From IMG/VR virus record IMGVR_UViG_3300045988_161624, positions 1 through 51,183 of that record: a stretch of DNA of 51,183 nucleotides; one strand, written 5' to 3'. Position 1 is the first letter of the stretch, and each line of letters begins with the position of its first letter. The notes under the pieces were generated by a model. The model saw only the letters and a list, made by a program, of their open reading frames with translations, was not told the origin of the DNA and did not search any database. Both the position numbers and the translations under genes were made by a program. Positions 8,327-36,339 of the stretch are shown here, in pieces. Origin of the DNA: a virus.

Positions 8327-8538
8327 AATATGCGTTTTTTGTTGGTATTTTTCTCCTTGTTATTGGTGGAACTTATTATACTGGCTATCGCGTGGGAAGT
8401 GCTGACACAAAAATTGAATATATAGAAAAAGAGGTTATTAAATATGTGGAAGTTGAAAAAGCGAAGTCGACAATTTATTCTTCTGCTAATCTTAGTCGTG
8501 ATATTTTGCTGCGGATGTACTCAGAAAATAAATTCTAG
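8323..8538 (+). CDS. i-spanin (inner-membrane spanin subunit)
   Basis: ATGA overlap with the endolysin stop. N-terminal TM YAFFVGIFLLVIGGTYY followed by a charged periplasmic part. Confidence 0.6.
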   Translation: MKYAFFVGIFLLVIGGTYYTGYRVGSADTKIEYIEKEVIKYVEVEKAKSTIYSSANLSRDILLRMYSENKF

Positions 8539-11802: not shown

Positions 11803-11929
11803 AAATCGGTAAATATACGCAATGAGCCGTTAAACATACAGTAAGTTGATAAATGGTATGTACGTTGTTCATCGATTTAACAAATATAAAAAGCCATAAT
11901 ACTACTGCATAAATAACAATCCAGTCCAT
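11777..11929 (-). CDS. 50-aa hydrophobic micro-ORF, not in the track
   Basis: Hand translation MDWIVIYAVVLWLFIFVKSMNNVHT... GGAGAA SD. Stop lies 1 nt before the polymerase ATG at 11775. Confidence 0.35.
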   Translation of the reverse strand: MDWIVIYAVVLWLFIFVKSMNNVHTIYQLTVCLTAHCVYLPIYGRVFGWW

Positions 11930-11930
11930 T

Positions 11931-12230
11931 TTAATTCTCCGCACTCAATAAATCAAAAGGATGTTCTTGCAATATCGGATAAAGAAAATTCGTCAAAACT
12001 TCAACGACTCTTTCTTCCCCGTCTTCTTTGCACAAATAACCGTTTCGATAGCAAATATGAAGTATCTCGTGCAGCAAGACATTTTCCTGTACTTGTAACG
12101 GCATATCTTTGTTAATAAAAATTTTAGCTTCGGCAAAATTTGATTTTCCCATATTTCCGCCACAATAATCACCGTCAACCATTTTAATTTCATAAAGTAC
12201 ACCGGCAATGTTTAACATCTTTTTAACCAT
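11931..12230 (-). CDS. small HExxH metallopeptidase-like protein (ImmA/IrrE-like core)
   Basis: ATG at 12230 after GGAGAA. AKIFINKDMPLQVQENVLLHEILHICY. Confidence 0.55.
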   Translation of the reverse strand: MVKKMLNIAGVLYEIKMVDGDYCGGNMGKSNFAEAKIFINKDMPLQVQENVLLHEILHICYRNGYLCKEDGEERVVEVLTNFLYPILQEHPFDLLSAEN

Positions 12231-12231
12231 T

Positions 12232-12423
12232 TTAATTCTCCACACCTGCAAGAAGTTCATCAACGATATAAAATTTTTCAACTTTTTCAGCTGGTAAAAA
12301 CAAAACAATGTTTTCTTCATCGGGGTTGATTGAAGGTATTTCAAAATGGTCTTCTATTTTATAACCGATATAAAATTGATCATCTTTTGTTTTTATCAAT
12401 AATCTTTCAAGCGATAACGACAT
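12232..12423 (-). CDS. hypothetical protein
   Basis: ATG at 12423 after AAGGAG. 63 aa. Confidence 0.55.
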   Translation of the reverse strand: MSLSLERLLIKTKDDQFYIGYKIEDHFEIPSINPDEENIVLFLPAEKVEKFYIVDELLAGVEN

Positions 12424-14231: not shown

Positions 14232-14615
14232 TTAACGTTTTCCTGCTTCTAAAATCGGTAAACCAGCCTCTGTCGGAATATAAATTACTTTATTTCCTTG
14301 AGTTTCGGTTTCGCTAAGATTTTGAATATACAAATATCTCAAATAACCTTCGTTATTTTTTAAGCTGTCACCGATTATTTTGTTTGCTTTAGCAACTCCT
14401 TCAGCTCTTATTACTTCCGCTTCCGCAAGCGCTTTTGCTGATTCTTTTTTAGCATGAGCTTCTTCAATAATAATTTTTCTATTGCTTTCAGCTCTTTGCA
14501 ATTCACCTTCACCAATCAATCTGCTTGTATATACATTATATCGAGGATAAATGTATATACAAGCACCAATCAAACCAACAAAGATTAAAAAACCTCGTAA
14601 ACCGCTATTACTCAT
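14232..14615 (-). CDS. truncated SPFH/Band-7 (prohibitin-like) membrane protein
   Basis: ATG at 14615 after AAGGAG. N-terminal TM, then AKALAEAEVIRAEGVAKANKIIGDSL..YLRYLYIQNL..NKVIYIP. Confidence 0.6.
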   Translation of the reverse strand: MSNSGLRGFLIFVGLIGACIYIYPRYNVYTSRLIGEGELQRAESNRKIIIEEAHAKKESAKALAEAEVIRAEGVAKANKIIGDSLKNNEGYLRYLYIQNLSETETQGNKVIYIPTEAGLPILEAGKR

Positions 14616-14619
14616 ATTT

Positions 14620-15696
14620 TTACTCCTTTTCTCCAAAATATTTTTCTGCAATTTTACTTTCATCAACTGCAACAAGTTTAAAACCGTTGTCAGGTCTATA
14701 AGTGCATTCGGCCACAAAATCCTCCGGCACACCGGCTTTTTTAGCCTGTGCAGGTGTCATAAGTTTTTCAACACGGACATCAATACCTGTCATTGCTTTA
14801 ATAAAATCAGCATTGATATTTTTATTCCATGCCGTCTGACCTAAAGCCGGAACGATTGAATAACCTTTAACACCTTTACCTTCCGACAGTCTGTGCTTTG
14901 CTAAATCCTCATAAGCGTCATAAGACTGTTTTAGGACTTCCTGAGCGCGTTTGAGATTTGTCAGCATCCATGATAGCCGTTCGTTGCTAATTTCGCTATC
15001 AAAAGCCAATTCTGCAACGTCCACGGCATTCATAGCCGCTATTTGTGCTGCGGGGCATTGAGAGAGCGACTGGCATTTATAGCATTGTGCGCCGCTGCAA
15101 ACTGTTGATGAGGGGTTGACAAGGGTTTGAATTAATTTGTCATACAGTTGCAATAGCTCACTATAACTTACCTGCCACTCTCTAATGCTTCCTTGCGGAT
15201 GATACGGTCGGGGTTGAAAAATTTTGAACACTATCAGGTTCGGATAAGAATTGCCAAGCTGTTTGCAATATCCAATCGCATGACTGATTAATGTCCAATT
15301 CATTTTCGGTTCAACAATCCGCCAGCCGTATTTCAAGTCCGCAATGGTTAAAATACCATCAGCACATTTAACGCAATCAGCACGTCCGTGAATTTCCCAG
15401 CCGTTACCGGAATGAGATGTATCCACTTCGACCTTGCAATTATCGGAAGTTATAAACTCGAAATAATCCCGGCAATTTTCAACCATTTCATCGGTTATAA
15501 ATAAACCGTTCGGTGCTGATTGTCCGATTAACGTTTCCGGGCTGATACCACCCGCAACCTGCTCAGCAAGCCAATGGACAGCATTACCTTCGTCGGTCAA
15601 TTCGGTTGAAGGGTCAAAAGGCTGTACGCTGCCTAAAGACTTATAACCGTTGCAGGCCATAAAACGCGGAAGTTCTGTTGCAGTTAATGATAACAT
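14620..15696 (-). CDS. PD-(D/E)XK Cas4-like exonuclease (DUF2800-like)
   Basis: ILTIADLKYG nuclease motif. C-terminal Cys cluster CSGAQCYKCQSLSQC. Adjacent to the DUF2815-like SSB. Confidence 0.7.
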   Translation of the reverse strand: MLSLTATELPRFMACNGYKSLGSVQPFDPSTELTDEGNAVHWLAEQVAGGISPETLIGQSAPNGLFITDEMVENCRDYFEFITSDNCKVEVDTSHSGNGWEIHGRADCVKCADGILTIADLKYGWRIVEPKMNWTLISHAIGYCKQLGNSYPNLIVFKIFQPRPYHPQGSIREWQVSYSELLQLYDKLIQTLVNPSSTVCSGAQCYKCQSLSQCPAAQIAAMNAVDVAELAFDSEISNERLSWMLTNLKRAQEVLKQSYDAYEDLAKHRLSEGKGVKGYSIVPALGQTAWNKNINADFIKAMTGIDVRVEKLMTPAQAKKAGVPEDFVAECTYRPDNGFKLVAVDESKIAEKYFGEKE

Positions 15697-17103: not shown

Positions 17104-18733
17104 AGATTATCAGCAGGAGGCTGTCAATAAAATTTACGACAGTTGGAATCAAGGGAATCGAAATGTATCTTTAGTGATGTGTACGGGATTAGGTAAATCT
17201 GTCTGTATGTCTTCCATAGCCCTTAACTTTGATAACCAACACAAACCTGTTGCAGTTGTTGCACATCGTAACGAGCTTGTCAGTCAAATGTCTTGTCATT
17301 TAGCACGTGTGGGTCTTTATCATCGGATAATAGCTCCAAGAGCTGTTGTCGGGCAAATTTCAAGAAAACATAAAATTGAATTTGGAAAATCTTTTATTAA
17401 TCCATCGGCATTATCGGCAGTTGTTGGTGTTGATACATTAATGGCACGAGCCGATAGTTTAAAAAATTGGGCGCAGCAAATAGCTTTGTGGGAGGTTGAC
17501 GAACAACATCACATTACTCGCGGCAATAAGTGGGGTAAAGCTGTTGAAATGTTTGTCAATGCCCGTGGGCTTGGTGTAACTGCAACACCGAATCGAGCTG
17601 ACGGTCAAGGATTAGGTCGATGGGTCGATGGTGTTATGGACGACATGGTTTTAGGTCCTTCAATGCGTTGGGCTATTGAAAATAATTTTCTTGCAGATTA
17701 CGAAATTGTCTGCCCTAAATCAGATTTAAATGTTGAAGACAGCCCGTTGTCTGCGAATGGCGATTGGTCTAGTCAAACTTTGCGTAAAGCTGCTAAAAAA
17801 TCACGAATCATCGGGGATGTAGTAACAAATTATATTAAATATGCTTTCGGTCGAAAAGCTATCGTTTTTGCTACTGACGTTGAAACAGCTGAAGAAATTT
17901 CAAGAGATTTTAACGCTCACAATATAAGAGCGGTTTCACTCAACGGTAAATCGTTACCGGCATTTAGAGAACAAAGTTTAGATAATTTTCGAGATAGTAA
18001 ATTACAGGTACTTGTCAATGTAGATTTGTTTGATGAAGGATTTGACGTTCCGAGTTGTGATGTTTGTATTATGGCCCGTCCCACTGCTTCACTTGGTAAA
18101 TTTTTACAACAAATAGGTCGTGTATTGCGTCCTGCACCTAATAAAACAGCTCTTATTATCGACCATGTTAGCAACGTTATTCGACATGGTTTGCCGGATA
18201 TGCCCAGAGAATGGTCCTTAGAACGGCGACAAAAAAAAGCTAAATTAACTAAAGACCCGGACGAAATAGAACTTACGGTTTGTAAAAAATGTCTTAAACC
18301 TTATGAAAAATTTAGAACTCAATGCCCTTATTGCGGGGCTGAGCTACCTGTACCAGAATCAAAATCTCGTACAATTGAAATAGTTGCTGGTGATTTGGTG
18401 TTATTAGATAAAGCAACCTTACAGCGCTTGCGGCAAAATGCAATGTTAGAAAGTCCGGGAAATATAGCCGCAAGAGTCGCAAAAGCCGCTGGACCAATAG
18501 CTGGTAAAGCCGCTGCAAATCGTCAAATGGAAAAGATAGAAGCTCAGAATGAATTAAAAGATACTATTGCTCAATGGGCAGCTATCGAACGTGAAAAAGG
18601 ATTTAACGACAGAGAAATTTATCGGCGTTTCTATTTGTCGTTAGGTATGGATGTGTTAACCGCTTTAAACGGTACTAGAACACGTCAAGATTATTTAACA
18701 ACAGCTGAAAGAATTAAAGGATGGTATGAATGA
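17087..18733 (+). CDS. SF2 DEAD/DEAH-box DNA helicase with C-terminal zinc ribbon
   Basis: CTGLGKS (Walker A), VDEQHH, VTATPNR, QQIGRVLR. CKKCLKPYEKFRTQCPYCG. Confidence 0.85.
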   Translation: MPIKLRDYQQEAVNKIYDSWNQGNRNVSLVMCTGLGKSVCMSSIALNFDNQHKPVAVVAHRNELVSQMSCHLARVGLYHRIIAPRAVVGQISRKHKIEFGKSFINPSALSAVVGVDTLMARADSLKNWAQQIALWEVDEQHHITRGNKWGKAVEMFVNARGLGVTATPNRADGQGLGRWVDGVMDDMVLGPSMRWAIENNFLADYEIVCPKSDLNVEDSPLSANGDWSSQTLRKAAKKSRIIGDVVTNYIKYAFGRKAIVFATDVETAEEISRDFNAHNIRAVSLNGKSLPAFREQSLDNFRDSKLQVLVNVDLFDEGFDVPSCDVCIMARPTASLGKFLQQIGRVLRPAPNKTALIIDHVSNVIRHGLPDMPREWSLERRQKKAKLTKDPDEIELTVCKKCLKPYEKFRTQCPYCGAELPVPESKSRTIEIVAGDLVLLDKATLQRLRQNAMLESPGNIAARVAKAAGPIAGKAAANRQMEKIEAQNELKDTIAQWAAIEREKGFNDREIYRRFYLSLGMDVLTALNGTRTRQDYLTTAERIKGWYE

Positions 18734-19059
18734 TAATAAACGATAATTCAATAATGCTTAACAAAATCCGGTGGGACATTAAATTTGTCTCTGAAAACAA
18801 TGATGTTTTGGATGGTAACAGAGGTGTGTGTTGTTACAGAACTTCAACAATTTATATATTAGAAAGTCTAAAACCTAGTGAAAAATTATTCACTTTATTT
18901 CACGAATTGGCTCACGCTCTTTTAGCAGAAACTGATTATAATATAGAAATTAAAGAAAATTTAGGTAACAATTATGAAAAATTTGTTTCTTTATTAGGCG
19001 CTAGAATATATGAACTTTGTGAACAAATAGAGCTATCTCAATGCGTGAATCAGCGGTAA
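18730..19059 (+). CDS. small HExxH metallopeptidase-like protein (paralogue-type of 11931..12230)
   Basis: STIYILESLKPSEKLFTLFHELAHALL. Confidence 0.55.
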   Translation: MIINDNSIMLNKIRWDIKFVSENNDVLDGNRGVCCYRTSTIYILESLKPSEKLFTLFHELAHALLAETDYNIEIKENLGNNYEKFVSLLGARIYELCEQIELSQCVNQR

Positions 19060-19424
19060 CATCTCATATTCGCCTCGCGGCTGCACAGCTTAATTGCCCT
19101 CTTTGGCGCAATAACTGTGGGGGATTTTATGATGATACCGGTCGTTTTGTTCGATATGGTTTAGGGTCGGAAGCTAAATTAGCTTCCAGTGATTTTATCG
19201 GTATTCGTCCGGTGCTTATAACACCTGAAATGGTTGGACAAGTTTTAGGCATATTTACAGCCGTTGAAATGAAAGCTGAAAATTGGCATTTTAACAAAAA
19301 TGACAAACACCTCTTGCAACAAAAACAGTTTATTGATATTATTAAACAATACGGGGGGTTAGCAGGATTTGCAACAAGTGTTGAAGATTTTTATAGGATT
19401 ATAAAATATGTCGATAACAAATAG
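19041..19424 (+). CDS. VRR-NUC type nuclease
   Basis: PD-(D/E)XK pattern SDFIGI ... AVEMK. Size and position after the helicase fit. Confidence 0.6.
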   Translation: MRESAVTSHIRLAAAQLNCPLWRNNCGGFYDDTGRFVRYGLGSEAKLASSDFIGIRPVLITPEMVGQVLGIFTAVEMKAENWHFNKNDKHLLQQKQFIDIIKQYGGLAGFATSVEDFYRIIKYVDNK

Positions 19425-25071: not shown

Positions 25072-25132
25072 AAGCGCGCTTTACATTTTTATATTAACTT
25101 AAAATATTTAAAATGTCAAGAAATATATAATG

Positions 25133-25594
25133 TTAAACAGTTTTCCATCGTTTAATAGGTTTCCATTTTGTCGAACATTCTTTTCGTCCGTTATCATATC
25201 TAAAACCTGTTTTTTCATATATATTAATATGCTTAGATGGTTTTTCAAATTTATAATGTTCTTTAGGTTGATAATCATTTTCGGATATTTTTTTTGCCAA
25301 AGCTATATCCTCTTCTGTTATAGATTTTATATGATATTCGATAGTTGTATGATTAAATTTAGCGACGTCCCCCGCAGCAAGTTTCGGTAACTTTTCAATT
25401 ACACAACATATATAACAATAAATTCTTTTAGGTTTTGTTTGATTACTATAACGCCCTGAAAATACTAATTGAAAGTAATTTTCAACTTTTTTTAATATTT
25501 TTTCACATTTTTTTCTTGAATATTCTTTTCTACATTTCATGGAACAATAATTTTTATCAAAAGATGTTTTCACACCACAGTTAAGACATTTCAT
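25133..25594 (-). CDS. zinc-ribbon protein with possible DnaA-domain-IV-like HTH
   Basis: MKCLNCG..CSMKC. AAGDVAKFNHTTIEYHIKSI resembles the DnaA C-terminal HTH. Confidence 0.3.
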   Translation of the reverse strand: MKCLNCGVKTSFDKNYCSMKCRKEYSRKKCEKILKKVENYFQLVFSGRYSNQTKPKRIYCYICCVIEKLPKLAAGDVAKFNHTTIEYHIKSITEEDIALAKKISENDYQPKEHYKFEKPSKHINIYEKTGFRYDNGRKECSTKWKPIKRWKTV

Positions 25595-25809
25595 TTCCCC
25601 TCACTTTCGCCGTTTAAGGTCTTGGTTAACAAATCATCAATAAAACCGCACCGAGGACAATCTTGCGTCGATTGATATGCTGTATCTCGGGCTAACCGAA
25701 TAGCTTCTCTAAGCCGATCAATCTCTGCTTGCTGTTCTTCTATCTTTTCTTTTAAATTTTTAATCTTTGAACAAGCATATAAGTTTGTGCAATTCCTTCT
25801 ACTCATCAC
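25591..25809 (-). CDS. hypothetical coiled-coil / Cys protein
   Basis: 72-aa ORF, 4-nt overlaps on both sides. Confidence 0.55.
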   Translation of the reverse strand: MMSRRNCTNLYACSKIKNLKEKIEEQQAEIDRLREAIRLARDTAYQSTQDCPRCGFIDDLLTKTLNGESEGK

Positions 25810-26027
25810 TCCACCTCAAACAAATCATCAATGTTTGCTTTGCTCTTGCCGAGATATTTAAGCTGAGTTGACATAGGACTTTTTGCGTCTATCAATCTTA
25901 TGTTTTTTGTTCCTTTGTTGTAGGCAACAAAATCGTTACTTGTAGGATTAAAGTCTAAAATAACAAATTTTACACCACTCCATTCTTTAATCCATACATC
26001 CCCAATTTCTGGTTTTTCTGCGCTCAT
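25806..26027 (-). CDS. hypothetical protein
   Basis: 73-aa ORF, coupled to its neighbours. Confidence 0.55.
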   Translation of the reverse strand: MSAEKPEIGDVWIKEWSGVKFVILDFNPTSNDFVAYNKGTKNIRLIDAKSPMSTQLKYLGKSKANIDDLFEVE

Positions 26028-26167
26028 TTGTAAAATCCTCCGTTTTCAACAATACCTTTTAAAAATATATATCCCGCCCAAGCACAAAATAGGATAAAAA
26101 CTATTGCCGGAATCCCGATAATCAAGCCGATTGTCCATAATACCCAAACTGGAATAGAAAAAATCAT
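26024..26167 (-). CDS. 47-aa hydrophobic micro-ORF, not in the track
   Basis: Hand translation MIFSIPVWVLWTIGLIIGIPAIVFILFCAWAGYIFLKGIVENGGFYK. ATGA overlap with the next gene. Confidence 0.45.
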   Translation of the reverse strand: MIFSIPVWVLWTIGLIIGIPAIVFILFCAWAGYIFLKGIVENGGFYK

Positions 26168-26182
26168 CTTACACCTACTTTC

Positions 26183-26320
26183 TTACCCTAAATTTCTTTT
26201 TACCCTTCCACACTTATTGCATATTTTGCAAAACTTACTATCTAGCCTCATCAAATCCGCGCAGCGCGAGCACCAGCGCACGTTGCAAAAACCTAGCCAG
26301 CACAACAAACGTCTAATCAT
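26183..26320 (-). CDS. 45-aa Cys-rich (zinc-ribbon-like) micro-ORF, not in the track
   Basis: Hand translation MIRRLLCWLGFCNVRWCSRCADLMRLDSKFCKICNKCGRVKRNLG. GGGAGGG SD. Confidence 0.45.
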   Translation of the reverse strand: MIRRLLCWLGFCNVRWCSRCADLMRLDSKFCKICNKCGRVKRNLG

Positions 26321-26398
26321 CTTAAAGCCCTCCCAAATAAATACGCAGCAAAAAAGCACATGACAGTAGTAATAACGTCTGACAGGTTTTCTCCAATT

Positions 26399-26608
26399 TC
26401 AATCATTGTTTTTTTCCTTTTGCATTTGTTCCGTTTCCGCGATAATCAGCATCGGGTAATTTTTATGCAGACAATTAAAAATTTTACTCAATGCCTGCTG
26501 CTGTGCTTTTGGTGTATCGGGGTCGATATGCGCATAATCTTTTATTCCCATGGCGTCCCCATCATCAAAAAAGTCAATTACAAATCTACCGTATATTTTT
26601 TCAATCAT
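26399..26608 (-). CDS. hypothetical protein
   Basis: 69-aa ORF in the operon. Confidence 0.55.
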   Translation of the reverse strand: MIEKIYGRFVIDFFDDGDAMGIKDYAHIDPDTPKAQQQALSKIFNCLHKNYPMLIIAETEQMQKEKNND

Positions 26609-26982
26609 TTCAGCACCTCGGTTATTTTGGTTAAAAGTTTGTGGAAATTATCTATTGACACAATATCTTGGTTAATAAATTCATTGTGTATTTTTTCTTT
26701 AACTTCTTTAAGCAACTGGCAGAGATGATCTATCTCTATCTCATTACTAGTTACAAGAGCTGATAAATCATTATTTTCATCTCTCACACACTTCAGTTCT
26801 TCGTAATCACACGGAGCTAGAACTTCGACAACTTCAAACGTGTAACTTATCGCATAAAATCTATTAAATTTACTTAGCTTGGCGACGTCTACACGCCCGT
26901 TTGATAGCCTGACATAATACGGCCCTGCTTTTAATTTTCTAGCTTTCCAGTCATCCGTTAAGCTCATCGCCCATCTCCTCAA
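26605..26982 (-). CDS. hypothetical protein
   Basis: ORF in the operon. The likely start is the internal ATG at 26967 (MSLTDDWKARKL). Confidence 0.55.
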   Translation of the reverse strand: MRRWAMSLTDDWKARKLKAGPYYVRLSNGRVDVAKLSKFNRFYAISYTFEVVEVLAPCDYEELKCVRDENNDLSALVTSNEIEIDHLCQLLKEVKEKIHNEFINQDIVSIDNFHKLLTKITEVLK

Positions 26983-27247
26983 TTTTCATTTCAGAAAAAA
27001 CATCCGGCTCTATGTCGCCAATTCCACCCATCACTTCCATATACTCTTCTTTTTTTTCGGCGCACATTTCATTTAAATACACCCACTTTTTACACCAATT
27101 TTGTAAATGTGTTTTTCTCGGATATGCTTTATATGCGGAAAATCCAAAATAATATACATACCCATTGAAATAAAAACCGACATGATTTTGGTCGCCTAAA
27201 ATATAGCCATTAACTTTTGGCGCATACGTATTGTCGTGAATTTTCAT
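26951..27247 (-). CDS. hypothetical protein with acidic C-terminus
   Basis: 98-aa ORF. Confidence 0.55.
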   Translation of the reverse strand: MKIHDNTYAPKVNGYILGDQNHVGFYFNGYVYYFGFSAYKAYPRKTHLQNWCKKWVYLNEMCAEKKEEYMEVMGGIGDIEPDVFSEMKIEEMGDELNG

Positions 27248-27281
27248 TTTTTCATCCTAAAATAGTTAAAGAGTTAAAAAA

Positions 27282-27650
27282 TTACAAAGCTAGCACCGGG
27301 CGAACGTACTTATTGTTGTTCTTATAGCCGTAGTTGTACAAACCGTAACTGGTGCCTAGGTTAGAGTACCACGCGTAGTAGTAGGAGTACTCCGACGAAG
27401 ACCAATACCAGTCTCTTTTAAGCGGCTCCCCGCCGGCTCGAACGAGTGCCCGGTTTACATCGTTGAAATTCTCAGCAATCGCTATCCATTCTTCCTTGCT
27501 CGGAATACCTACTTTTACGGCGTCATACCAATTCATAGGCTCCAGCTCATCTTGCAAGGCCAAATAAATAACTCGGCCGTTTATTTGAGCGGCACGGACG
27601 CCGATGGGACGTCCGTCTTTCTTAACAATCATTACTCTGAATTTTGCCAT
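27282..27650 (-). CDS. DUF1566-like (Lcl C-terminal-like) small protein, paralogue A1
   Basis: PMNWYDA..IPSKEEW..GGEPLKRDWYWSSSE..AW....KYVRPVL. Confidence 0.6.
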   Translation of the reverse strand: MAKFRVMIVKKDGRPIGVRAAQINGRVIYLALQDELEPMNWYDAVKVGIPSKEEWIAIAENFNDVNRALVRAGGEPLKRDWYWSSSEYSYYYAWYSNLGTSYGLYNYGYKNNNKYVRPVLAL

Positions 27651-27660
27651 TTGTTTTCTC

Positions 27661-28074
27661 CTAAATTAAAACCGGGCGAACGTAGTTATAGTTGAGCTTA
27701 TAGTACCAGTCCAAACCGTAACTGTAGCCAAGGTCACAGCCCCACGCGTAGTTGTAGGAGTCCTCCGACGAAGACCAATAGTTTTTATTCAGAAGGTCGC
27801 CGCCTACTTTTTCCAGCATTTTGTTGATTCGTTTGATATTTGCGATAACAAACTCCCACTCGTGTTTCATCGGCAAACGGCAATAGTTCTTTTCACACCA
27901 GCATTTTGCGTTGAACCAATCCATGGTTCTAGGCGCGTCGTAAAGTGCAAGGTCGAAATAATGTTTGTCGTCATCAAGCCAACACCTAATCCCGACAATT
28001 TCCTTTTCTCTATCAATATCTTCTGAAGCCGTTCCGTTAGCATATGCGTATTCAATAAAAATTTCTTTCTTCAT
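27661..28074 (-). CDS. DUF1566-like small protein, paralogue B1
   Basis: MDWFNAKCWCEKNYCRLPMKHEW..NYWSSSE..AW..YVRPVL. Confidence 0.6.
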   Translation of the reverse strand: MKKEIFIEYAYANGTASEDIDREKEIVGIRCWLDDDKHYFDLALYDAPRTMDWFNAKCWCEKNYCRLPMKHEWEFVIANIKRINKMLEKVGGDLLNKNYWSSSEDSYNYAWGCDLGYSYGLDWYYKLNYNYVRPVLI

Positions 28075-28113
28075 TTTTGTTCCTTTATTTAAAAATTTGA
28101 TAGCCTTTGCGTT

Positions 28114-28386
28114 CTATTTTATTAAATTTTCCAAAATTATTTTCATTTGCTCCGGGGTACGATTAACCGCTATACAGGGAATTACAAGATTACCGTCAAT
28201 ATCGTAAGTATCTACATGCAGATAAATATCCCCTGTATCAAAAAATTCTAAATCATTTGCGATAATACAATAATTGTCATATATTTCTACACCATCAATT
28301 TCTTTGGCCCATTCAACCAACTCAAACCATGTGATAGTAGGCATAAAAGCCAAATTATCCTCATAATCCGGCGTGTTGTTACTCAT
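28114..28386 (-). CDS. highly acidic 90-aa protein
   Basis: About 20 Asp/Glu against 4 Lys/Arg, by eye. Confidence 0.55.
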   Translation of the reverse strand: MSNNTPDYEDNLAFMPTITWFELVEWAKEIDGVEIYDNYCIIANDLEFFDTGDIYLHVDTYDIDGNLVIPCIAVNRTPEQMKIILENLIK

Positions 28387-28864
28387 CTTTCAATCCTTTC
28401 AATTTATCAGACCAGTGTTTTATTAGTTTTAAGTCCTCTTTGCGCTGCGGGCTGCTGTAATACATATCATTCCCGCACTCGTGTATATACTCCTGACTTT
28501 TGGCCCATTGCAAGCCGCTCAGCACTGTTTCCAAACTTTCGACTATCGCGCCGCCGGCAGTTTTATAATGCGGTTTCCCTTTAAGAATATTTGTAATTAT
28601 AACAGGACTCACGCCTAAAAATTTTGCGACATCGGAAGCGGTTTTAAAAACCTCTGTTTTACCGTTCTGCAAGTGTAATAGTACCCCGTTTGTCTGTGTA
28701 ATAGTACTTGCGTCAACAAGTAAAGGTAGTAAACCAGCTTTAAAAGTTTCATGCGTTGTAAGTGTGATAGTATCGCCGAGAACAAGCTTAAGATGTCTTA
28801 AATTTTTAATTACCATTCGAGTTTTATACCCATTTTTATGCGTAATAGTACAGCTGTAAAACAT
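28379..28864 (-). CDS. protein with NUMOD1-like HTH
   Basis: VFKTASDVAKFLGVSPVIITNILKGK. Confidence 0.45.
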   Translation of the reverse strand: MFYSCTITHKNGYKTRMVIKNLRHLKLVLGDTITLTTHETFKAGLLPLLVDASTITQTNGVLLHLQNGKTEVFKTASDVAKFLGVSPVIITNILKGKPHYKTAGGAIVESLETVLSGLQWAKSQEYIHECGNDMYYSSPQRKEDLKLIKHWSDKLKGLKDE

Positions 28865-28879
28865 TTTTACATATCCTTT

Positions 28880-29455
28880 TTATTTGTGAAGTTTAACCGT
28901 AAAGCCGAAACTTTCAGCTTTTAATAAGTTTTTTGTTGTAAATAAAACATTGCCGAAATCGTCTAAAACATCCCATTCAGTTGTTTTAATGTTCTCCGGT
29001 TTTAAATTTAAAGGCTGTAATAATGCCGCCTTTTTTTTATCACGACTTTCTAATAAAATAGCGTTGTCAGTTCTTGACGGAATTAAAAGCCGTGAATCAT
29101 TCCCGATAAAATTTAAAGCAATTTTAAAATAACTTTCCTTAATTAAAAAATTGTCAATCTGTGCAAGGCCGGCTGTATATTTTATTCTATCAAGCTGCCA
29201 AAGTCGCTGGGCGTTTTTTTTTGCTGAATCATATACAATTTTCCAATCGGCGAGAGGTTTTAAGTCGGTCGGAGCAGGTACGGGCATTTGAAGACGCCAG
29301 CAAAGCGAAAGTTGACCGCCGCCGCTGTCATCAATAAGCATAATCATCCCGTCAGACGCTATATATTTCCCGTCTGTATCTTGATAAATATATTGTAGCG
29401 ACAACCTATCCATTAAACGACTTGTCACTTTGTCAAGCTCGCACGAGTAAAACAT
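28880..29455 (-). CDS. hypothetical protein (191 aa from the ATG at 29455)
   Basis: The track start at 29512 is a TTG. MFYSC N-terminus as in the 28379..28864 product. Confidence 0.55.
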   Translation of the reverse strand: MFYSCELDKVTSRLMDRLSLQYIYQDTDGKYIASDGMIMLIDDSGGGQLSLCWRLQMPVPAPTDLKPLADWKIVYDSAKKNAQRLWQLDRIKYTAGLAQIDNFLIKESYFKIALNFIGNDSRLLIPSRTDNAILLESRDKKKAALLQPLNLKPENIKTTEWDVLDDFGNVLFTTKNLLKAESFGFTVKLHK

Positions 29456-29457
29456 TT

Positions 29458-29622
29458 TTAATAATCCTTTAAAATTGTTAAACATTCCGTCTTTGACAAA
29501 TCTTTTAAACAAATAAAATATTCTGTTTCAGCGTCATAATAAGCATTTTGCCGACGAAAGCCGCTATTTGCAGCGACAAGAATCGCTGCAAATATTAAAA
29601 CCGTTGTAAAATATTTAAACAT
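29458..29622 (-). CDS. 54-aa ORF with signal-peptide-like N-terminus, not in the track
   Basis: Hand translation MFKYFTTVLIFAAILVAANSGFRRQNAYYDAETEYFICLKDLSKTECLTILKDY. AAGGAAA SD. Confidence 0.45.
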   Translation of the reverse strand: MFKYFTTVLIFAAILVAANSGFRRQNAYYDAETEYFICLKDLSKTECLTILKDY

Positions 29623-29653
29623 TTTGGTTATTTCCTTACGTAACCGTTAAGAA

Positions 29654-30067
29654 TTACAAAGTTAGCACCGGGCGAACGAAGCAATCGTCATACCTACTTG
29701 CAGCGTAGTTTAAACCGTAACTGCCATAAAGGATCGATAACCACGCGCTGCCGCTGCTGTATTCCGATGAAGACCAGTAACGGACGCCATCTTTAAACGG
29801 CTCGCCGGCGGCGTCGTTCATCATTTTGTTAATCAATATCAAATTCTCACCGATAAGATTTAGTTCGTGTTTCATCGGCAAACGGCAATAGTTTTCTTCA
29901 CACCAACCCTTGCTTTCGTAATAGTTCATTGTTTCAGGCGCATCTTTCGGACTGATGATAAAATTATGTTTATCGTCAACGTAACAGCGAATGCCGAAAA
30001 ATTCCTTATTTTTGTCAAGCGTTTCGGTTGATGTTCCGTCTGTGTATACAAATTCTAATTTATTCAT
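29654..30067 (-). CDS. DUF1566-like small protein, paralogue B2
   Basis: MNYYESKGWCEENYCRLPMKHEL..RYWSSSE..AW..FVRPVL. 20-nt identity with B1 around catcggcaaacggcaatagtt. Confidence 0.6.
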   Translation of the reverse strand: MNKLEFVYTDGTSTETLDKNKEFFGIRCYVDDKHNFIISPKDAPETMNYYESKGWCEENYCRLPMKHELNLIGENLILINKMMNDAAGEPFKDGVRYWSSSEYSSGSAWLSILYGSYGLNYAASRYDDCFVRPVLTL

Positions 30068-30084
30068 CTGTTTTTACTCCATAA

Positions 30085-30450
30085 TTAAAAATTTACAATT
30101 ACGCGGACATTATGTCTAAACGGTTTTTCATCAAAATTTAAACCGGATATTCTGTTAAAATCATAATAAAGCGCGTAATCGTGCCTGGCTTCCGACGCCG
30201 ACCAATAACAGTCTTTTTTAAGCGGCTCCCCGCCCGCCTGCTCGCATGCGTCATTGATAGCGTCAAAATTTTCACTAATCGCAAACCATTCTTCAATTGA
30301 CGGGATCGCTTGATATGAAGCGCTAAACCAATTCATCCGCTCCGGCTCATCCTGAAGCGCGAGGGTAATTATCCGGCCGTTTATTTGGGCAGCGCGGACG
30401 CCTACCGGCCGCCCGTTTCTTTTAACAATTTCAACTTTAAATTTTGTCAT
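30085..30450 (-). CDS. DUF1566-like small protein, paralogue A2
   Basis: ATG at 30450. MTKFKVEIVKRNGRPVGVRAAQINGR matches A1 MAKFRVMIVKKDGRPIGVRAAQINGR. Confidence 0.6.
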   Translation of the reverse strand: MTKFKVEIVKRNGRPVGVRAAQINGRIITLALQDEPERMNWFSASYQAIPSIEEWFAISENFDAINDACEQAGGEPLKKDCYWSASEARHDYALYYDFNRISGLNFDEKPFRHNVRVIVNF

Positions 30451-30454
30451 CTCA

Positions 30455-30646
30455 TTAACCTTTAAAATTAATTTCAGCACCGTCAACGTAATCAATAGCT
30501 TCGCGCAGGTATTCCGGCAAACCGTCAACCATGTCGCAAACCCATTGATTGTTATATCCGTAAATTTGGAAACTTATCGAATCTTTCCCGGAATTTATGG
30601 CTTTTTCAACCATAGTTTTAAAATCACTTGAATCAATTTTTTTCAT
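30455..30646 (-). CDS. hypothetical protein, first gene after the internal early promoter
   Basis: 63-aa ORF, AAAGGAT SD. Confidence 0.55.
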   Translation of the reverse strand: MKKIDSSDFKTMVEKAINSGKDSISFQIYGYNNQWVCDMVDGLPEYLREAIDYVDGAEINFKG

Positions 30647-30647
30647 G

Positions 30648-30706
30648 TTCGAATCCTTTTCTTGTGTTTATACTTAATATATAACATAAATTATTAAAAT
30701 TGCCAA
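30648..30706 (-). promoter_or_regulatory. early promoter plus leader, copy 2
   Basis: - strand TTGGCA (30706-30701), N17, TATATA (30683-30678). About 50 nt nearly identical to 32393-32440. Confidence 0.65.
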
Positions 30707-30727
30707 TAGGCTTTTTAATAATTTATG

Positions 30728-31030
30728 TTAAAAACTCCACGGTCCCTTGATGATTTTACTATTGCCCGTGCCGGGTTTGTACCAGACAAAACCCCCACCC
30801 GCCGCGCCTTGTCTCCATTTCGTACAGCTTAATTGATTGTCAATAAATATTTTACCATCCGGCCGCAATTCGACAACATCAGCGTCCCAAAAATTTTTTA
30901 TTTTGTCAGCCAAGTCTTGCAGCGTCGACGCCGTGTCATTTACTTCTTCGCGCTGTAATTCAATTTCATAAGCTGTTTTTAGCTCCGCGATGTCTCGATT
31001 CGTAAGTTTTGCACGGATTAAAATTTGCAT
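30728..31030 (-). CDS. hypothetical protein
   Basis: 100-aa ORF. Confidence 0.55.
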   Translation of the reverse strand: MQILIRAKLTNRDIAELKTAYEIELQREEVNDTASTLQDLADKIKNFWDADVVELRPDGKIFIDNQLSCTKWRQGAAGGGFVWYKPGTGNSKIIKGPWSF

Positions 31031-31034
31031 GGCG

Positions 31035-31196
31035 TTAACCTCTGATACTTTTAATATACGCGTTGTTAAAGCCTAAATATTGCAAAATCCCTAATTGCGT
31101 TTTTGCATGATTTAAATAATAACATTTAACAGCTACGTCTTTTTTAGTTGGTTTTTTGTCAAGCCCGAAATACACGATAAATTTTGTTTTTTGCAT
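31035..31196 (-). CDS. 53-aa ORF, not in the track
   Basis: Hand translation MQKTKFIVYFGLDKKPTKKDVAVKCYYLNHAKTQLGILQYLGFNNAYIKSIRG. AAGGGGG SD. Confidence 0.4.
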   Translation of the reverse strand: MQKTKFIVYFGLDKKPTKKDVAVKCYYLNHAKTQLGILQYLGFNNAYIKSIRG

Positions 31197-31238
31197 TTTA
31201 ACCCCCTTAAGCGGCTGGCATGTTCTAAGACTTTTTCT

Positions 31239-31583
31239 TTATTGAAAAAGCAATCTCATCATGGACGGGCATTGTTCAACTACTCCGCACGGTGTCAACA
31301 TATACCATTTGTTTGTTGCTATCTCCACGCCGTTCGCGTATTGTTTACCGGCTTTTTGTGTTATTCTTAAACCTTGAATCGCGTTTAAACGTTCGCGGAT
31401 CGTTTGCGTTGGCCGGTTCGCAAGCGTAAAAAATATTTGTCCTTTGTCGTTATGTTCAGCAATTAAATTTTCGTGTAAATATAAGCGCGCGCCGCTGTCG
31501 TCGCTTTGGACTCTGGTGTTTGACTGTTTGAAGTTTTGAAAGCGGTTGAAAGCGTCCGCGGCTTTGTAACTAATATCTTTCAT
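31239..31583 (-). CDS. hypothetical protein
   Basis: ATG at 31583 lies 7 nt after GGAGGA, whereas the track start 31598 lacks an SD. Confidence 0.55.
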   Translation of the reverse strand: MKDISYKAADAFNRFQNFKQSNTRVQSDDSGARLYLHENLIAEHNDKGQIFFTLANRPTQTIRERLNAIQGLRITQKAGKQYANGVEIATNKWYMLTPCGVVEQCPSMMRLLFQ

Positions 31584-31608
31584 TTTTGAATCCTCCATAA
31601 ATTATTAA

Positions 31609-32064
31609 TTAGCCAAAAATTTCAACAATTTGATATTTTTTAATTTTTAACATTTTGCAAAGTGATTCTAACACAAATTTATTATCACCACTGCCGCCGA
31701 AGCTTGGAAAGTTAAAAATTCCCGCGTTGTTAATCGCTTCTTCAAACGCCGCGCTTTGTCTGTTATAACCATAACCGCCCGCGCAACCACTGCCGCGCGT
31801 GTCGACGCCAACGCCGTTGGCGGTTATCCACAAGCAACAATAACTTGTAGATTTAGTGTTATAAAATCTAACGTCAATTGCTTCCACAAAATTCCCATTG
31901 CAATTTTTTTCTTCGAAATTGAGAACTTTATAACCGGAGGTGAAATTATTTTCTTTTCTGAATTTAACGTTAAATTTTTGCCGGGCCGGGTCAATGTCAA
32001 CTTTTATCATTTTTTCATCAGCTGCCCAACATGACGGTTTATTTTTAAATTTAAGTGTTATCAT
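31609..32064 (-). CDS. hypothetical protein with GSGCAGGYGYNRQSAAFEEA motif
   Basis: 151-aa ORF. Motif noted but not assignable. Confidence 0.55.
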   Translation of the reverse strand: MITLKFKNKPSCWAADEKMIKVDIDPARQKFNVKFRKENNFTSGYKVLNFEEKNCNGNFVEAIDVRFYNTKSTSYCCLWITANGVGVDTRGSGCAGGYGYNRQSAAFEEAINNAGIFNFPSFGGSGDNKFVLESLCKMLKIKKYQIVEIFG

Positions 32065-32087
32065 TGTTTTTAACCTCCAAATATGTT

Positions 32088-32390
32088 TTACATTAATTTA
32101 CTGTCAACCTGTTCGCGTATAACCGCAATAGCTTCTTGATTTAAAGCCGTTTTTAGCAATTCAACGATAGGACCAATATCCAAATCGCCGCTGAAGTCTA
32201 TTATTTGGACGAGTAGCGTCGTCTCTAAAACTCGAGTCCCGTCGGTATGCGTATAAAGCCCCTTGCCCTCTGTTATCGTGCAATCTCCGACAATACCGCC
32301 AACAATTTTATAAGCATCTGTTGTTAAAATTTCTTGCTGTTTGGTGTCTTTGTCGTTAAGCCCTATATACAAATTAAATTTTGTAAACAT
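32088..32390 (-). CDS. hypothetical protein (possibly DUF3574-like), first early gene
   Basis: ATG at 32390. FNLYIGLNDKDTK...TITEGKGLYTH..G..LETTLLVQII. Confidence 0.4.
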   Translation of the reverse strand: MFTKFNLYIGLNDKDTKQQEILTTDAYKIVGGIVGDCTITEGKGLYTHTDGTRVLETTLLVQIIDFSGDLDIGPIVELLKTALNQEAIAVIREQVDSKLM

Positions 32391-32392
32391 TT

Positions 32393-32451
32393 TTCGAATC
32401 CTTTCTTTATGTTTATACTTAATATATAACATAAATTATAAATGTTGTCAA
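32393..32451 (-). promoter_or_regulatory. early promoter plus leader, copy 1
   Basis: - strand TTGACA (32451-32446), N17, TATATA (32428-32423). The leader is shared with 30648-30697. Confidence 0.7.
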
Positions 32452-32841
32452 GTGTTTAGTGTTAATTTTTTGGTTAAAAATTATTAAAAGCTGCTGTTAA
32501 AAAACTCGAATCCTCTAAAACCGTTGATATACTTAGGATTCCGAGAGTTGTCAATTTGTCTTGCATTGTTGAAACAACAAACAACGACAACTTACAACTT
32601 TTAAAATGCGAAAAAAAAGTCCTCCAAACCATTAACCAACGCACGCCAACGGAGCTTTATAGTATAAAATGTTTATAGTGTTAAGAGTTTGTACACAGGC
32701 CAACGGTTTTTAAAGAAGGGGGGTATCCCCGGGCTGTTTTGGGCTGCTCTTACCCCAACACCCGAAACACTGAAAACATCAAAAACTCTTGACAACATCT
32801 AAAGTTTATAATAACATTCATAACAAAAGGAGAAAAAACCC

Positions 32842-33993: not shown

Positions 33994-34610
33994 TGACATC
34001 CTGTTATCCTACAAGTGCTTATGACATGATAACTGAGGCGGAGAGAGCCGTGCTCGAGGAGTATGTTAGCTATGCCGTGACAGAGCAGCAGCGCAAACAT
34101 CAACGGGTAGACCTCGCGCTTAATCTTCCGGTGCCTGCCGAGTTCATGCGCAAGGGGAGAGAGTGCTTTGCCAAGCCTGTGGTGCTTGCGGCATTGCGTG
34201 AGCGCCTGCTTGAGGAGAGTGCCAGACGCGACATATCGCCTGACAGAGTGATAAGAGAATACGGCAAAATAGCTTTCAGTGACATAAGCGACTATCTTGA
34301 GCAAGGGTCATGGGGGACCGTGCAACTGAAAGACTTTGCGAATATTTCGGCTGATAAACTCGGAGCAATCAAAAGTGTAGAGACACGTATGGGGAGCAAT
34401 GGTGCGACACAGGTCAAACTCGTGTTGCATGACAAATTTCCGGCGCTTAAGGCGCTTGCCGAGCTTATGGGGCTGGTAGCTCCTGACGCTCCTCCGGCGC
34501 TTGAAGGCTATGTCAAACAAGAGATACGGTCGATGGAGCAAGCGGCGCTGCAAGCTCCTGAGGCAGAGTATGAGGAGCTGCTGGAGGAGGTCAACCGTGG
34601 GGACGACTAG
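33993..34610 (+). CDS. terS: terminase small subunit (Terminase_2/P27-like)
   Basis: RDISPDRVIREYGKIAFSDISDYL ... LGAIKSVETR ... VKLVLHDKFPALKALAELMGL. Confidence 0.8.
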   Translation: MTSCYPTSAYDMITEAERAVLEEYVSYAVTEQQRKHQRVDLALNLPVPAEFMRKGRECFAKPVVLAALRERLLEESARRDISPDRVIREYGKIAFSDISDYLEQGSWGTVQLKDFANISADKLGAIKSVETRMGSNGATQVKLVLHDKFPALKALAELMGLVAPDAPPALEGYVKQEIRSMEQAALQAPEAEYEELLEEVNRGDD

Positions 34611-36339
34611 CAGCATGAGAGCGTTGACGGCTGCGCGCGCATCAACTGGACCAGTGCGCCCTTGGCATCCTCAACCGCTCGACAACGGCACATGGCCTCC
34701 TGACTACAAAGCGGTGTACGCATGGCGGACAGCTATGCTCCGCAGGCTTCGCTCAACGCCCGGTGCGCTTGAGGCGGCCCGGGCTTATTATAGTACACGG
34801 TCGGGCAATTTTATAATGGACTGGATAGACACATATGACCCGAGACGTCAACAGGACAAATGGGTGCCTTTCATCTTCTTCAAACGCCAACAGGAGGTGA
34901 TAGACTTTTTTGAGAGCTGTGCGGCAGACAGAGAGAGCGGGCTGGTGGAGAAATGCAGGGACTTCGGCTTGACATGGCTTGCTTGCGCTTATTCCGTATG
35001 GCGATGGCTTTTTATTAAAAATGATGCTGTCGGGTGGGGGAGTCGCAAAGAAACGCTTGTCGACAAACCCGGAGACCCGGACAGTATATTTGAGAAGATA
35101 AGACTTATTTTACACAGACTTCCGCGCATTTGGCTGCCTGAAGGCTTTAGCTTCGGGCGCAATTGTACTTATATGAAATTGCTTAATCCGGCTACTGGCG
35201 CCATTATTGCCGGAGAGGCCGGTGACAATATCGGCCGTGGTGGTCGACGGAGTTGTTATTTTTTAGACGAAGCAGCGCATTTGGAGAGAGCGGAGAAAGT
35301 AGAAGCGGCTTTAGGGGACAATACTAATGTCCGTATCGATATTTCATCGGTCAACGGCGTCGGTAATGTTTTTCATCGGAGACGCGAGAATGGTATTGTA
35401 TGGACCCCGGAGCGAAAGGAGTATCCAATCGGTTATGTCAGGGTGTTTGTAGCAGATTGGCGAGACCATCCGACTAAAACGCAAGAATGGTATGACGCTC
35501 GTAAAGCTCGATATGAACGAGAGGGTATGGCACATATTTTTGCACAGGAGGTTGATAGGAATTATGCAGCTGCCGTAAGCAATACTGTTATCGTTTACGA
35601 ATGGATATTGGCGGCTGTCGACGCGCATATCAAACTTCCGTGGCTGGGAGAAGCTGTAGAAGCACATAAAAACGAATGGACGGCCGGGCTTGATATAGCA
35701 GACGAGGGAAATGACCGTAACGCTTTAGCCATGCGGGAATATGTCGTGTGGCGTCAAGTGGATGAATGGGGCGAGAGAGATCCGGGGATTTCCGCTCGCA
35801 AGGCTGTATTGGCATGTCGCCCACATGCGGGAAATATTACTTGTCAATATGACTGTATCGGTGTAGGAGCGGGTGTTAAAACAGAGTACAACAGACTTGC
35901 GATAGACGACGGGGTAATAGATGCAAAACGCATACCTTTTATTCCGTGGAATGCGGGCGCTGCTGTAGAAAGACCTTTTGAAAGAATTATACCTGATGAT
36001 AATGAAAGCTTGCAAAATAAAGATTTTTTTGATAATTTGAAAGCACAAGCTTGGTGGTCTATGCGCACAAGATTTTATAAAACCTATAAAGCTGTAACGG
36101 AAGGTGTAAGATATAAACCGGAAGAACTTATATCTATAGACAGTTCAATGCAGCTTTTGGAACAGGTAAAAAAAGAACTTATGCAACCGACGGTCGGATA
36201 TAGTTCTCGGCTTAAAATGTTGATAGAAAAGAAACCGAACGGGATGAGATCGCCTAACTTAGCTGACAGTGGTGTTATGGCTTTCTTTCCTCTGTCGGAG
36301 AATACAAATTACAGTGTGGTTGGTTCATATGGGATATAA
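34597..36339 (+). CDS. terL: terminase large subunit
   Basis: GTG at 34597 lies 6 nt after GGAGGAGG. VPFIFFKRQQEVIDFF, VEKCRDFGLTW, YFLDEAAH. Position before the portal gene. Confidence 0.85.
   Translation: MGTTSSMRALTAARASTGPVRPWHPQPLDNGTWPPDYKAVYAWRTAMLRRLRSTPGALEAARAYYSTRSGNFIMDWIDTYDPRRQQDKWVPFIFFKRQQEVIDFFESCAADRESGLVEKCRDFGLTWLACAYSVWRWLFIKNDAVGWGSRKETLVDKPGDPDSIFEKIRLILHRLPRIWLPEGFSFGRNCTYMKLLNPATGAIIAGEAGDNIGRGGRRSCYFLDEAAHLERAEKVEAALGDNTNVRIDISSVNGVGNVFHRRRENGIVWTPERKEYPIGYVRVFVADWRDHPTKTQEWYDARKARYEREGMAHIFAQEVDRNYAAAVSNTVIVYEWILAAVDAHIKLPWLGEAVEAHKNEWTAGLDIADEGNDRNALAMREYVVWRQVDEWGERDPGISARKAVLACRPHAGNITCQYDCIGVGAGVKTEYNRLAIDDGVIDAKRIPFIPWNAGAAVERPFERIIPDDNESLQNKDFFDNLKAQAWWSMRTRFYKTYKAVTEGVRYKPEELISIDSSMQLLEQVKKELMQPTVGYSSRLKMLIEKKPNGMRSPNLADSGVMAFFPLSENTNYSVVGSYGI

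Follow-up and report, generated by a model that had tools for sequence, protein, structure and literature searches.

Four small genes on the minus strand of an uncultured virus genome, IMG/VR record IMGVR_UViG_3300045988_161624 (51,183 nt, analysed over its full length and called the window below), encode lectin-like mini-proteins of two types, A (genes A1 and A2) and B (genes B1 and B2). Comparison with their relatives in other phages indicates that A1, B1, B2 and these relatives have a C-terminal variable region (VR) with the adenine-mutagenesis footprint typical of diversity-generating retroelements (DGRs). The complete phage genomes carry no DGR machinery in cis. We propose that the mini-proteins are free-standing binders acting early in the cytoplasm, that their tails have been diversified by a DGR working in trans or in the recent past, and that the genes are shuffled among unrelated phages with a common host, an uncultured alphaproteobacterium of the gut. 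We put the probability of this overall reading at roughly 0.55.

Conserved heads and hypervariable tails

Homologs of the mini-proteins form 645 clusters at 90% identity for type A and well over 100 for type B, all of them from gut metagenomes. At the DNA level we compared 62 distinct A-type and 24 B-type genes from around 70 loci. These genes consist of a conserved head followed by a C-terminal tail of around 27 codons. Across 120 A-type proteins, the first ~86 residues are near-invariant and variation is found at specific positions in the last ~30, interleaved with the invariant residues AW, L, SYGL, K and YVRPVLAL. The tail scaffolds read GCGTGG-NNN-TCN-NNN-YTT-...-AGTTACGGTTTG or GCGTGG-NNT-GNN-NNN-CTT-...-AGC-NNT-TTG.

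Heads and tails vary at different positions of the codon. Heads of the 62 A-type genes show ordinary purifying selection (entropy at the three codon positions, H1/H2/H3, of 0.41/0.29/0.86), while the 18 hypervariable tail codons invert this pattern (1.65/1.52/1.08); the codon-position distribution of variable sites differs accordingly between tail and head (Fisher p = 8e-7). Some third bases of the tail are near-fixed, for example with H3 = 0.24 next to H1 = 1.74. Codons of the form NNC or NNT make up 88% of the hypervariable tail codons compared to 46% in heads, and 94% of the residues in the hypervariable columns are ones that NNC can reach (most frequent are Y 24%, N 14%, S 12%, G 11% and D 9%). 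The bias extends to synonymous choice: degenerate amino acids (G/A/V/T/P/S/L/R) have C-ending codons in 63% of cases in hypervariable columns compared to 31% in heads. The B family has the same pattern (tail 1.07/1.00/0.63, head 0.54/0.39/0.92), and so do five tandem copies from a distant branch of the family in one unrelated 88-kb phage.

Closely related genes differ mainly in their tails. For 25 gene pairs, heads are 99.1% identical and tails 67.5%. For example, A1 matches its ortholog in a close relative of the window phage (L007) at 250 of 255 nt in the head and at 86 of 114 in the tail, and B1 matches a copy in an unrelated P2-like prophage (L005) at 299 of 300 and 80 of 114 nt, respectively.

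Five prophage genes with heads at least 96% identical have 42 variable tail sites. Of these, 37 fall on the first or second codon position, and likewise 37 of the 42 have A as one of their bases. Conversely, A is found at only 7 of the 75 invariant tail sites of this cluster compared to 30% in heads (p = 1.6e-5). Variable third positions number 5 in ~38 tail codons and 6 in 87 head codons. Writing A at each variable site yields an AAC/AAT-rich sequence, ...GAG AAC TCA AAC AAC AAC GCG TGG AAT GCA AAA CTT AAT AAC AGC AAT TTG AAC AAC AAC.... Synonymous and scaffold sites of the tails are about as conserved as the heads in this cluster, so that the hypermutation would be recent relative to a neutral divergence of ~2–4%.

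Could ordinary diversifying selection on a binding surface, by point mutation and positive selection for Tyr/Asn/Ser/Gly/Asp-rich loops, give the same picture with no retroelement involved? The variable residues do map to strands and loops in the C-terminal part of a lectin-like fold, and paratopes rich in Y, S, N, G and D are common among binding proteins. Nonetheless, selection on the protein leaves unexplained the synonymous preference for C-ending codons, the depletion of adenine at invariant tail sites, the near-fixed third bases and the saturation of tail differences at 1% head divergence. We therefore consider this explanation very improbable.

The place of the variation agrees with the protein fold, to whose C-terminal end it is confined, as expected of variable proteins of DGRs of the CLec2 class. 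An AlphaFold2 (AF2) model of B1 (predicted local distance difference test, pLDDT, 91.4) has a C-type-lectin-like fold; its top PDB match is 8q4e_A, the C-terminal domain of Legionella Lcl (expectation value, E, 7e-4; template modelling score, TM, 0.53–0.55; 23% identity), followed by many C-type lectin-like domains. The best matches of the model in a library of viral structures are the C-terminal tips of tail-fibre proteins of 1,300–1,400 aa, with a query TM score (TMq) of 0.78–0.83. The AF2 model of A1, built from a shallow alignment, was too poor to be used (pLDDT 53).

By profile, A1, B1 and B2 match Pfam PF07603 (Lcl_C, DUF1566) with 21.1, 22.9 and 21.6 bits (E 1e-4 to 4e-4), all under the gathering score of 34.9 bits, and A2 is unmatched. 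A profile of the mini-protein family itself retrieves 3,582 cluster representatives at E <= 1e-3, many of them huge multi-repeat proteins; five large ones that we tested score 56.5–123.7 bits on PF07603. Many close homologs already carry a precomputed PF07603 match, and the best PDB sequence match of the family profile is again 8q4e (E = 0.013, with the alignment over YWSSxE...VRxV). The DUF1566/Lcl_C assignment made in the original prediction thus holds by profile and structure, with direct Pfam scores below threshold. We conclude from profiles and the predicted model that A1, B1, B2 and A2 are stand-alone C-type-lectin-like domains of the DUF1566/Lcl_C superfamily.

The original prediction had described four open reading frames (ORFs) as two diverged pairs that all carry the DUF1566 signature. 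The ORFs, their lengths (Table 1) and the CRLPMKHE motif in both B1 and B2 were as described, and two exact strings quoted from the DNA do occur twice each (27868/29873 and 27416/30216) where none is expected in 100 shuffles. The signature is present in A1, B1 and B2 and incomplete in A2, which has AL instead of AW and VRVIV (VRVIVNF) instead of VRPV (VRPVLAL).

Types A and B are indeed present twice each, and the picture of two pairs proved too simple. At the amino-acid level, A1 and A2 are 55% identical, B1 and B2 47%, and A and B types 29–39%. The strongest nucleotide similarity is found between the 3′ thirds of the adjacent A1 and B1 genes (82% over 113 nt; 77–89% in sliding windows, compared to ~30% in the 5′ parts), because the same tail scaffolds sit on A and B heads. 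The patchy identity of the four genes is accordingly explained by common variable-region scaffolds and by mosaics of heads and tails, not by two pairs diverging. The earlier suggestion of duplication with ongoing recombination or diversification was right in spirit, and had missed the C-terminal confinement of the variation and its DGR-type adenine footprint.

In A1 itself, A fills 46% of codon positions 1 and 2 of the hypervariable segment, which ends in the codons AAG AAC AAC AAT AAG. The columns of this segment are the ones found hypervariable across the 62 A-type genes. B2 has no orthologs, and the assignment of its tail as a variable region rests on scaffold and codon pattern; in a search of 5.8 billion proteins, none comes closer to B2 than 55% identity.

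A2 behaves differently. Its tail (30085–30204) is identical at 117 of 117 nt in five genomes whose heads are 89–99% identical, its last ~260 nt diverge at the usual background rate, and mosaicism with other A heads is limited to the first ~110 nt of the gene. Third bases of the A2 tail are not C-biased (C in 5 of 26) and its 3′ end has diverged. Judging from these comparisons, A2 is a fixed, non-diversified derivative, which makes it an internal control.

Searching for the retroelement and dating the tails

Bases 1–55 of the window are identical to bases 51129–51183. This 55-nt terminal identity stems from overlap in the assembly, which makes the window a complete genome, circular or circularly permuted, of ~51,128 bp. 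No match to a reverse transcriptase (RT) family (RVT/RT, by Pfam or PHROGs) was found in its larger ORFs (at least 200–250 aa), no YxDD box in its ORFs of at least 180 aa, and no fifth VR-like copy in the window, either by blastn with word size 7 or with an nhmmer profile. Likewise, neither an RT motif nor a template repeat is present in 66 loci totalling 864 kb (within 10 kb of the genes), and Pfam detects no RT near the five-copy array of the 88-kb phage (L017). Inferred AAY-rich template patterns had 0 matches in IMG/VR. Patterns made of the scaffold only, which any cognate template would match, gave one match in each of four complete IMG/VR contigs (22.8, 38.7, 39.5 and 50.9 kb), and each match is the known VR. 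No Avd turned up, small ORFs having not been searched specifically for Avd-like four-helix bundles.

A cis system that we overlooked, with a highly divergent RT or with a template unlike the VRs, is the least probable of the explanations considered. Around half of the window ORFs have no recognisable family, which together with the scope of the Avd search would leave room for it. Nevertheless, the genome is complete, its larger ORFs (at least 250 aa) have no RT match and those of at least 180 aa no YxDD, and a template has to match the VR at non-A positions, where blastn and nhmmer gave no fifth copy.

Three candidates for a template were rejected. The 3′ patch common to A1 and B1 is not a pair of VR and template: its differences show no preference for adenine, whichever copy is taken as the template, and both copies belong to coding sequence. 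The A2 tail, invariant and A-rich, has many non-A mismatches to the VRs, and its invariance is part of the ~260-nt block that evolves at background rate. Finally, VR-like matches outside family ORFs (in L074, L103 and L083) are 45-nt 3′ remnants fused to unrelated genes. These remnants (L074 1320–1368, L103 3190–3238 and L083 295–340) correspond to the 3′ end of a family gene (~45 nt, ACGGCCGGCGGCAACGATTATGTTCTTCCGGTGCTCGCTTTGTGA with the conserved flank). The remnant is joined at an identical breakpoint behind two unrelated genes, one helix-turn-helix-like and one YebC-like, and is either a deletion scar moved by recombination or an aberrant retrohoming product.

On the target side, the last ~21 nt of the VR and ~25 nt past the stop codon are conserved after most family genes, irrespective of the gene that follows. 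As a separate observation, a GC-rich hairpin (8-bp stem, 4–5-nt loop; for example CCGGCGGC-TTGAC-GCCGCCGG) is present at a minority of loci, around 27 nt past the stop of the last family gene; it is missing from the window. This downstream hairpin could be a terminator or a DGR-type target hairpin.

We propose that tail diversity would arise by adenine-directed mutagenic retrohoming from a template repeat located outside the phage and supplied in trans by the host chromosome or a co-resident element. Homologous recombination through invariant flanks, namely YWSSSE upstream and YVRPVLAL with ~25 nt downstream, would afterwards distribute heads and tails to other, unrelated phages of this host.

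Several observations weigh against this proposal. Besides the missing RT, Avd and template repeat, the putative rule that adenine is replaced by any base is drawn from comparing VRs with one another, and it has exceptions in third-position changes and in the scaffold codons AGT, TAC and AAG, which retain conserved adenines. In the closest pairs, third positions are 80% identical in tails compared to 98.5% in heads, and third positions account for 6 of the 28 tail differences between A1 and its L007 ortholog. At least in the window clade, these raised third-position differences make replacement of a whole cassette a likelier proximate event than mutagenesis in situ. Alleles can also be stable and widespread: the P0406 allele recurs unchanged on 35 contigs, and the window and L007 have the same B1 tail. 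In addition, predictions show neither a stable hairpin nor a stable cruciform 3′ of the window VRs (z = +0.6 to +1.5); in BPP-1 such a downstream structure is needed for efficient retrohoming (PMC3240598). Remote targets are, moreover, not expected for phage DGRs (PMC5758913).

Many of these points would fit a relic. The VRs could descend from the target of an ancestral DGR cassette whose machinery has since been lost, leaving an old standing pool of tails that recombination between paralogs, and between co-infecting phages and prophages, shuffles onto conserved heads. Such a history would account for an RT and template repeat found nowhere in the window, loci and IMG/VR contigs searched, for the raised third-position divergence of the tails, for stable widespread alleles, for the lack of a target-side hairpin and for the 45-nt remnants behind unrelated genes. 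It would also account for mosaicism, seen in the tail common to A1 and B1, in the 5′ part of A2 and in the B1 head found in an unrelated prophage. The prophage cluster speaks against it. There, third positions and scaffolds of the tails are about as conserved as the heads, yet 37 sites at positions 1 and 2 are scrambled. Old alleles should show synonymous differences as well. Tails as young as their heads mean that the tail differences arose within ~2–4% neutral divergence, and tail identity is already saturated (~67%) at 99% head identity. We regard the relic as unlikely, though it deserves to be taken seriously. The pattern in these sequences favours a system that is active, or was very recently so, over ancient relics.

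Gene exchange, genomic setting and possible function

The original prediction had proposed comparing copy number among related phages, and repertoires do differ among otherwise 91–98% identical genomes (Table 1). Between the window and L007, tail differences number 0/117 for A2, 0/114 for B1 and 28/114 for A1. B2 is absent from the close relatives L007, L102 and L064. In L102, the closest relative of the window phage (91–98% identical), a truncated, frameshifted A-type pseudogene at 11899–12129 stands in place of B1 and A1, which marks this locus as a hotspot for the gain and loss of genes. The near-identical heads in unrelated genomes lead us to conclude that mini-protein genes have recently been exchanged between unrelated phages of one host.

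The window phage is siphovirus-like and encodes a large terminase (~60% identical to Rhizobium phage terminases), a portal, a major head protein and a tape measure protein, together with a family-A DNA polymerase, helicase, primase, exonuclease and methyltransferase. None of its larger ORFs could be recognised as an integrase, and a tRNA scan and an Rfam scan of the window were both empty. Nucleotide searches in near and distant modes against annotated and deposited phages found no relative of the window. With tblastn, the mini-proteins have three weak matches in annotated phages and nothing else; the sole deposited phage with a recognisable homolog is Dulem virus 29 (23.5 kb, lemur gut).

The same gene family is carried by related P2-like prophages; a host gene beside them is 99% identical to a gene in Candidatus Scatocola faecigallinarum, an alphaproteobacterium of the gut that has not been cultured. 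Apart from the mini-protein genes, the window phage and these prophages have in common little more than a single protein of 193 aa and a tail-fibre fragment. The 193-aa protein is 84% identical between them (DNA 78–81%). This protein and the tail-fibre fragment are consistent with a common host and exchange of modules.

Three phage types place the mini-protein genes in an early, recombination or replication region. In the window, A1, B1, B2 and A2 lie within a block of ~22 small minus-strand ORFs (25133–32644) located between the primase gene and the packaging genes, opposite in strand to the structural module and distant from it, and in the window clade they adjoin the primase. In the prophages, they are found between a CI-like repressor and the integrase, on the strand of these two genes and next to an ERF recombinase, a position equivalent to the lambda pL operon. 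In the unrelated 88-kb phage, they follow an SNF2 helicase. The early location claimed in the original prediction is thus supported by the minus-strand block and the prophage operon, that is, by synteny as its sole support. The genes pair with no effector domain and no fixed partner gene; PADLOC gave no match, and PHROGs assigned no function to the genes neighbouring the mini-proteins.

The absence of signal peptides, also claimed originally, was upheld: A1, B1, B2 and A2 have no hydrophobic N-terminus, transmembrane segment or lipobox by hydropathy and regular expression only, and no N-terminal fibre-attachment domain. Because they have no export signal and belong to early or accessory operons, we favour action in the cytoplasm. 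With lower confidence, we propose that the mini-proteins would act early in infection as binders of variable specificity, directed at fast-evolving host defence proteins or at proteins of rival phages, with several paralogs offering several specificities and A2 a frozen one. A weakness here is that a role in host takeover or anti-defence is suggested, at this lower confidence, by gene location, protein size and missing export signals alone.

The main functional rival is in our view rather improbable. The proteins would be extracellular or virion-associated adhesins, that is, accessory receptor-binding tips docking on tail or capsid, or released at lysis, analogous to T4-type gp38; or else sensors of superinfection exclusion expressed by the prophage. 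The best viral structural matches are tail-fibre tips (TMq ~0.8), known phage DGR targets are mostly tail proteins (PMC8144416), and the prophage genes lie on the repressor/integrase strand. Against this, the window genes are distant from the structural module and on the opposite strand, three phage types place them by ERF, SNF2 helicase or primase, and the proteins have no export signal, fibre-attachment domain, effector domain or fixed partner gene.

The early cytoplasmic binder can be taken a step further. A host-chromosomal or co-resident DGR might hypermutate early genes of several unrelated phages and prophages, giving a continually renewed, antibody-like repertoire of cytoplasmic binders that neutralise host defence or rival-phage proteins, some of them frozen as A2. 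We hold this version only tentatively, as a possibility clearly short of even odds.

Table 1. Positions of the mini-protein genes, their variable regions and associated features, with gene repertoires of the window phage and its relatives.
Feature	Location	Strand	Description
A1	27282-27650	-	122 aa, type A; conserved head and variable tail
A1 hypervariable segment	27309-27389	-	27 codons, between WSSSE and YVRPVLAL; 21/27 NNC/NNT
Conserved 3′ element of A1 VR	27254-27308	-	TACGTTCGCCCGGTGCTAGCTTTG, stop codon, then TTTTTTAACTCTTTAACTATTTTAGG
B1	27661-28074	-	137 aa, type B, CRLPMKHE motif
B1 hypervariable segment	27685-27762	-	20/25 codons NNC/NNT, A-ending 0; scaffold as in A1 tail, 82% nt identity
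B2	29654-30067	-	137 aa, divergent type B, confined to the window phage lineage
B2 tail of variable-region type	29681-29761	-	20/27 NNC/NNT; scaffold GCG TGG ... AGT TAC GGT TTA ... GTT CGC CCG GTG CTA kept
A2	30085-30450	-	121 aa counted from MTKFKV, type A; fixed degenerate tail
Window repertoire			A2, B2, B1, A1
L007 repertoire			A2, B1, A′, A
L102 repertoire			A2 and truncated A
L064 repertoire			A2, B, A
GC-rich hairpin loci	L010 ~10825-10850; L012 ~12290-12312; L071, L072, L075, L078, L080 after last A gene		
193-aa protein and tail-fibre fragment common to prophages	window 7317-7898 and 2443-2585; L002/L006 ~14370-15120 and 17500-19170		
L005, L006	377-398 kb and 417-437 kb		both on one 554-kb contig, ERZ28574599 scaffold_1

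Other features of these genomes were recorded. A 59-nt AT-rich intergenic element is found twice in the early block of the window (30648–30706 and 32393–32451, 88% identical) and three times in the related phage L012 (~8373–8434, 9041–9119 and 9914–9988); it is a possible early promoter or operator. At window positions 25096, 27254, 30683 and 32589, a looser 28-nt motif is repeated. GC content reaches 0.51 at 34001–36000, across the large terminase gene, compared to 0.32–0.42 in the rest of the genome. Among the relatives, the commonest carriers of A-type genes are contigs of ~21–23 kb (L008, L013, L014, L071, L073 and L091) whose genes are nearly without Pfam matches, and these could represent a small phage, or a satellite, with the same host. 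Finally, L005 and L006 are two copies of one P2-like prophage, ~39 kb apart and next to an EF-Tu gene, which reflects either a tandem or polylysogenic arrangement or an assembly effect.

Relation to known retroelement targets

DGR targets of the DUF1566 class, short targets, multi-target arrays and trans-complementation are already known. Compared with the DGR surveys, what appears new is the finding of hypervariable, apparently intracellular mini-lectins in phage early operons of complete genomes that have no retroelement. Viral DGR targets are mostly tail proteins whose variation alters host range (PMC8144416). Here, no fewer than three unrelated phage types, all infecting a single uncultured alphaproteobacterium of the gut, have arrays of stand-alone lectin-like proteins with a hypermutation footprint. 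Should the footprint stem from activity that is still going on, mutagenic retrohoming would cross replicon boundaries, from a host or co-resident element to a phage, and phages would employ targeted hypervariation inside the cell, possibly for counter-defence. Even if the VRs are relics, the family amounts to a ready-made library, with hundreds of natural variants of a 120-aa scaffold and the fixed control A2, which would be useful in specificity studies and in the engineering of binders.

Trans action has precedents in remote-target DGRs, such as the Treponema TvpA family, in which one template serves several dispersed genes, and in BPP-1, in which avd-TR-brt works in trans by complementation (PMC5758913). 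The remote targets known so far share a replicon or genome with their DGR and have no link to phages, and a target on a separate, DGR-less phage genome is not described in the DGR surveys (PMC5758913, PMC8144416 and PMC8143477).

By domain family, the mini-proteins belong with CLec2/DUF1566-type proteins, a recurrent class of DGR targets (PMC5758913; PMC8143477). Within this class, category 'd' (DUF1566, DUF823, Fib_succ_major; prototype Legionella LdtA) holds the VRs of DUF1566 type, and around half of its targets are short and consist of DUF1566 only (Wu et al. 2018, PMC5758913). The likeness extends to the VR at the extreme C-terminus, the AAY-derived codon pattern, the invariant 3′ end, the short members and the multi-target arrays. 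Known members of the class differ in having RT, Avd and template nearby or in the same genome, whereas no RT or template was found in the window genome. They are also typically lipoproteins, surface or tail proteins, whereas the window proteins have no export signal and belong to early or accessory operons.

The C-terminal domain of Legionella pneumophila Lcl (8q4e; PF07603) is the best PDB match of the mini-proteins by both profile and fold. Lcl is a secreted collagen-like adhesin whose C-terminal domain is not hypervariable, whereas the window proteins have a single domain, are apparently cytoplasmic and score below threshold in Pfam.

DGR-diversified tail-fibre tips (BPP-1 Mtd, the DUF1566 targets of Bacteroides 'Bacuni' phages and tentaclins) likewise have the C-type-lectin fold. 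These tips form the C-terminal ends of large structural proteins whose late-region genes lie next to the DGR, whereas the window proteins are free-standing, 120–140 aa long and encoded in the early region; the window's own tail genes are without a DUF1566 or lectin-like domain. The principle is nonetheless the same in both, namely a stable scaffold showing a hypervariable ligand-binding face.

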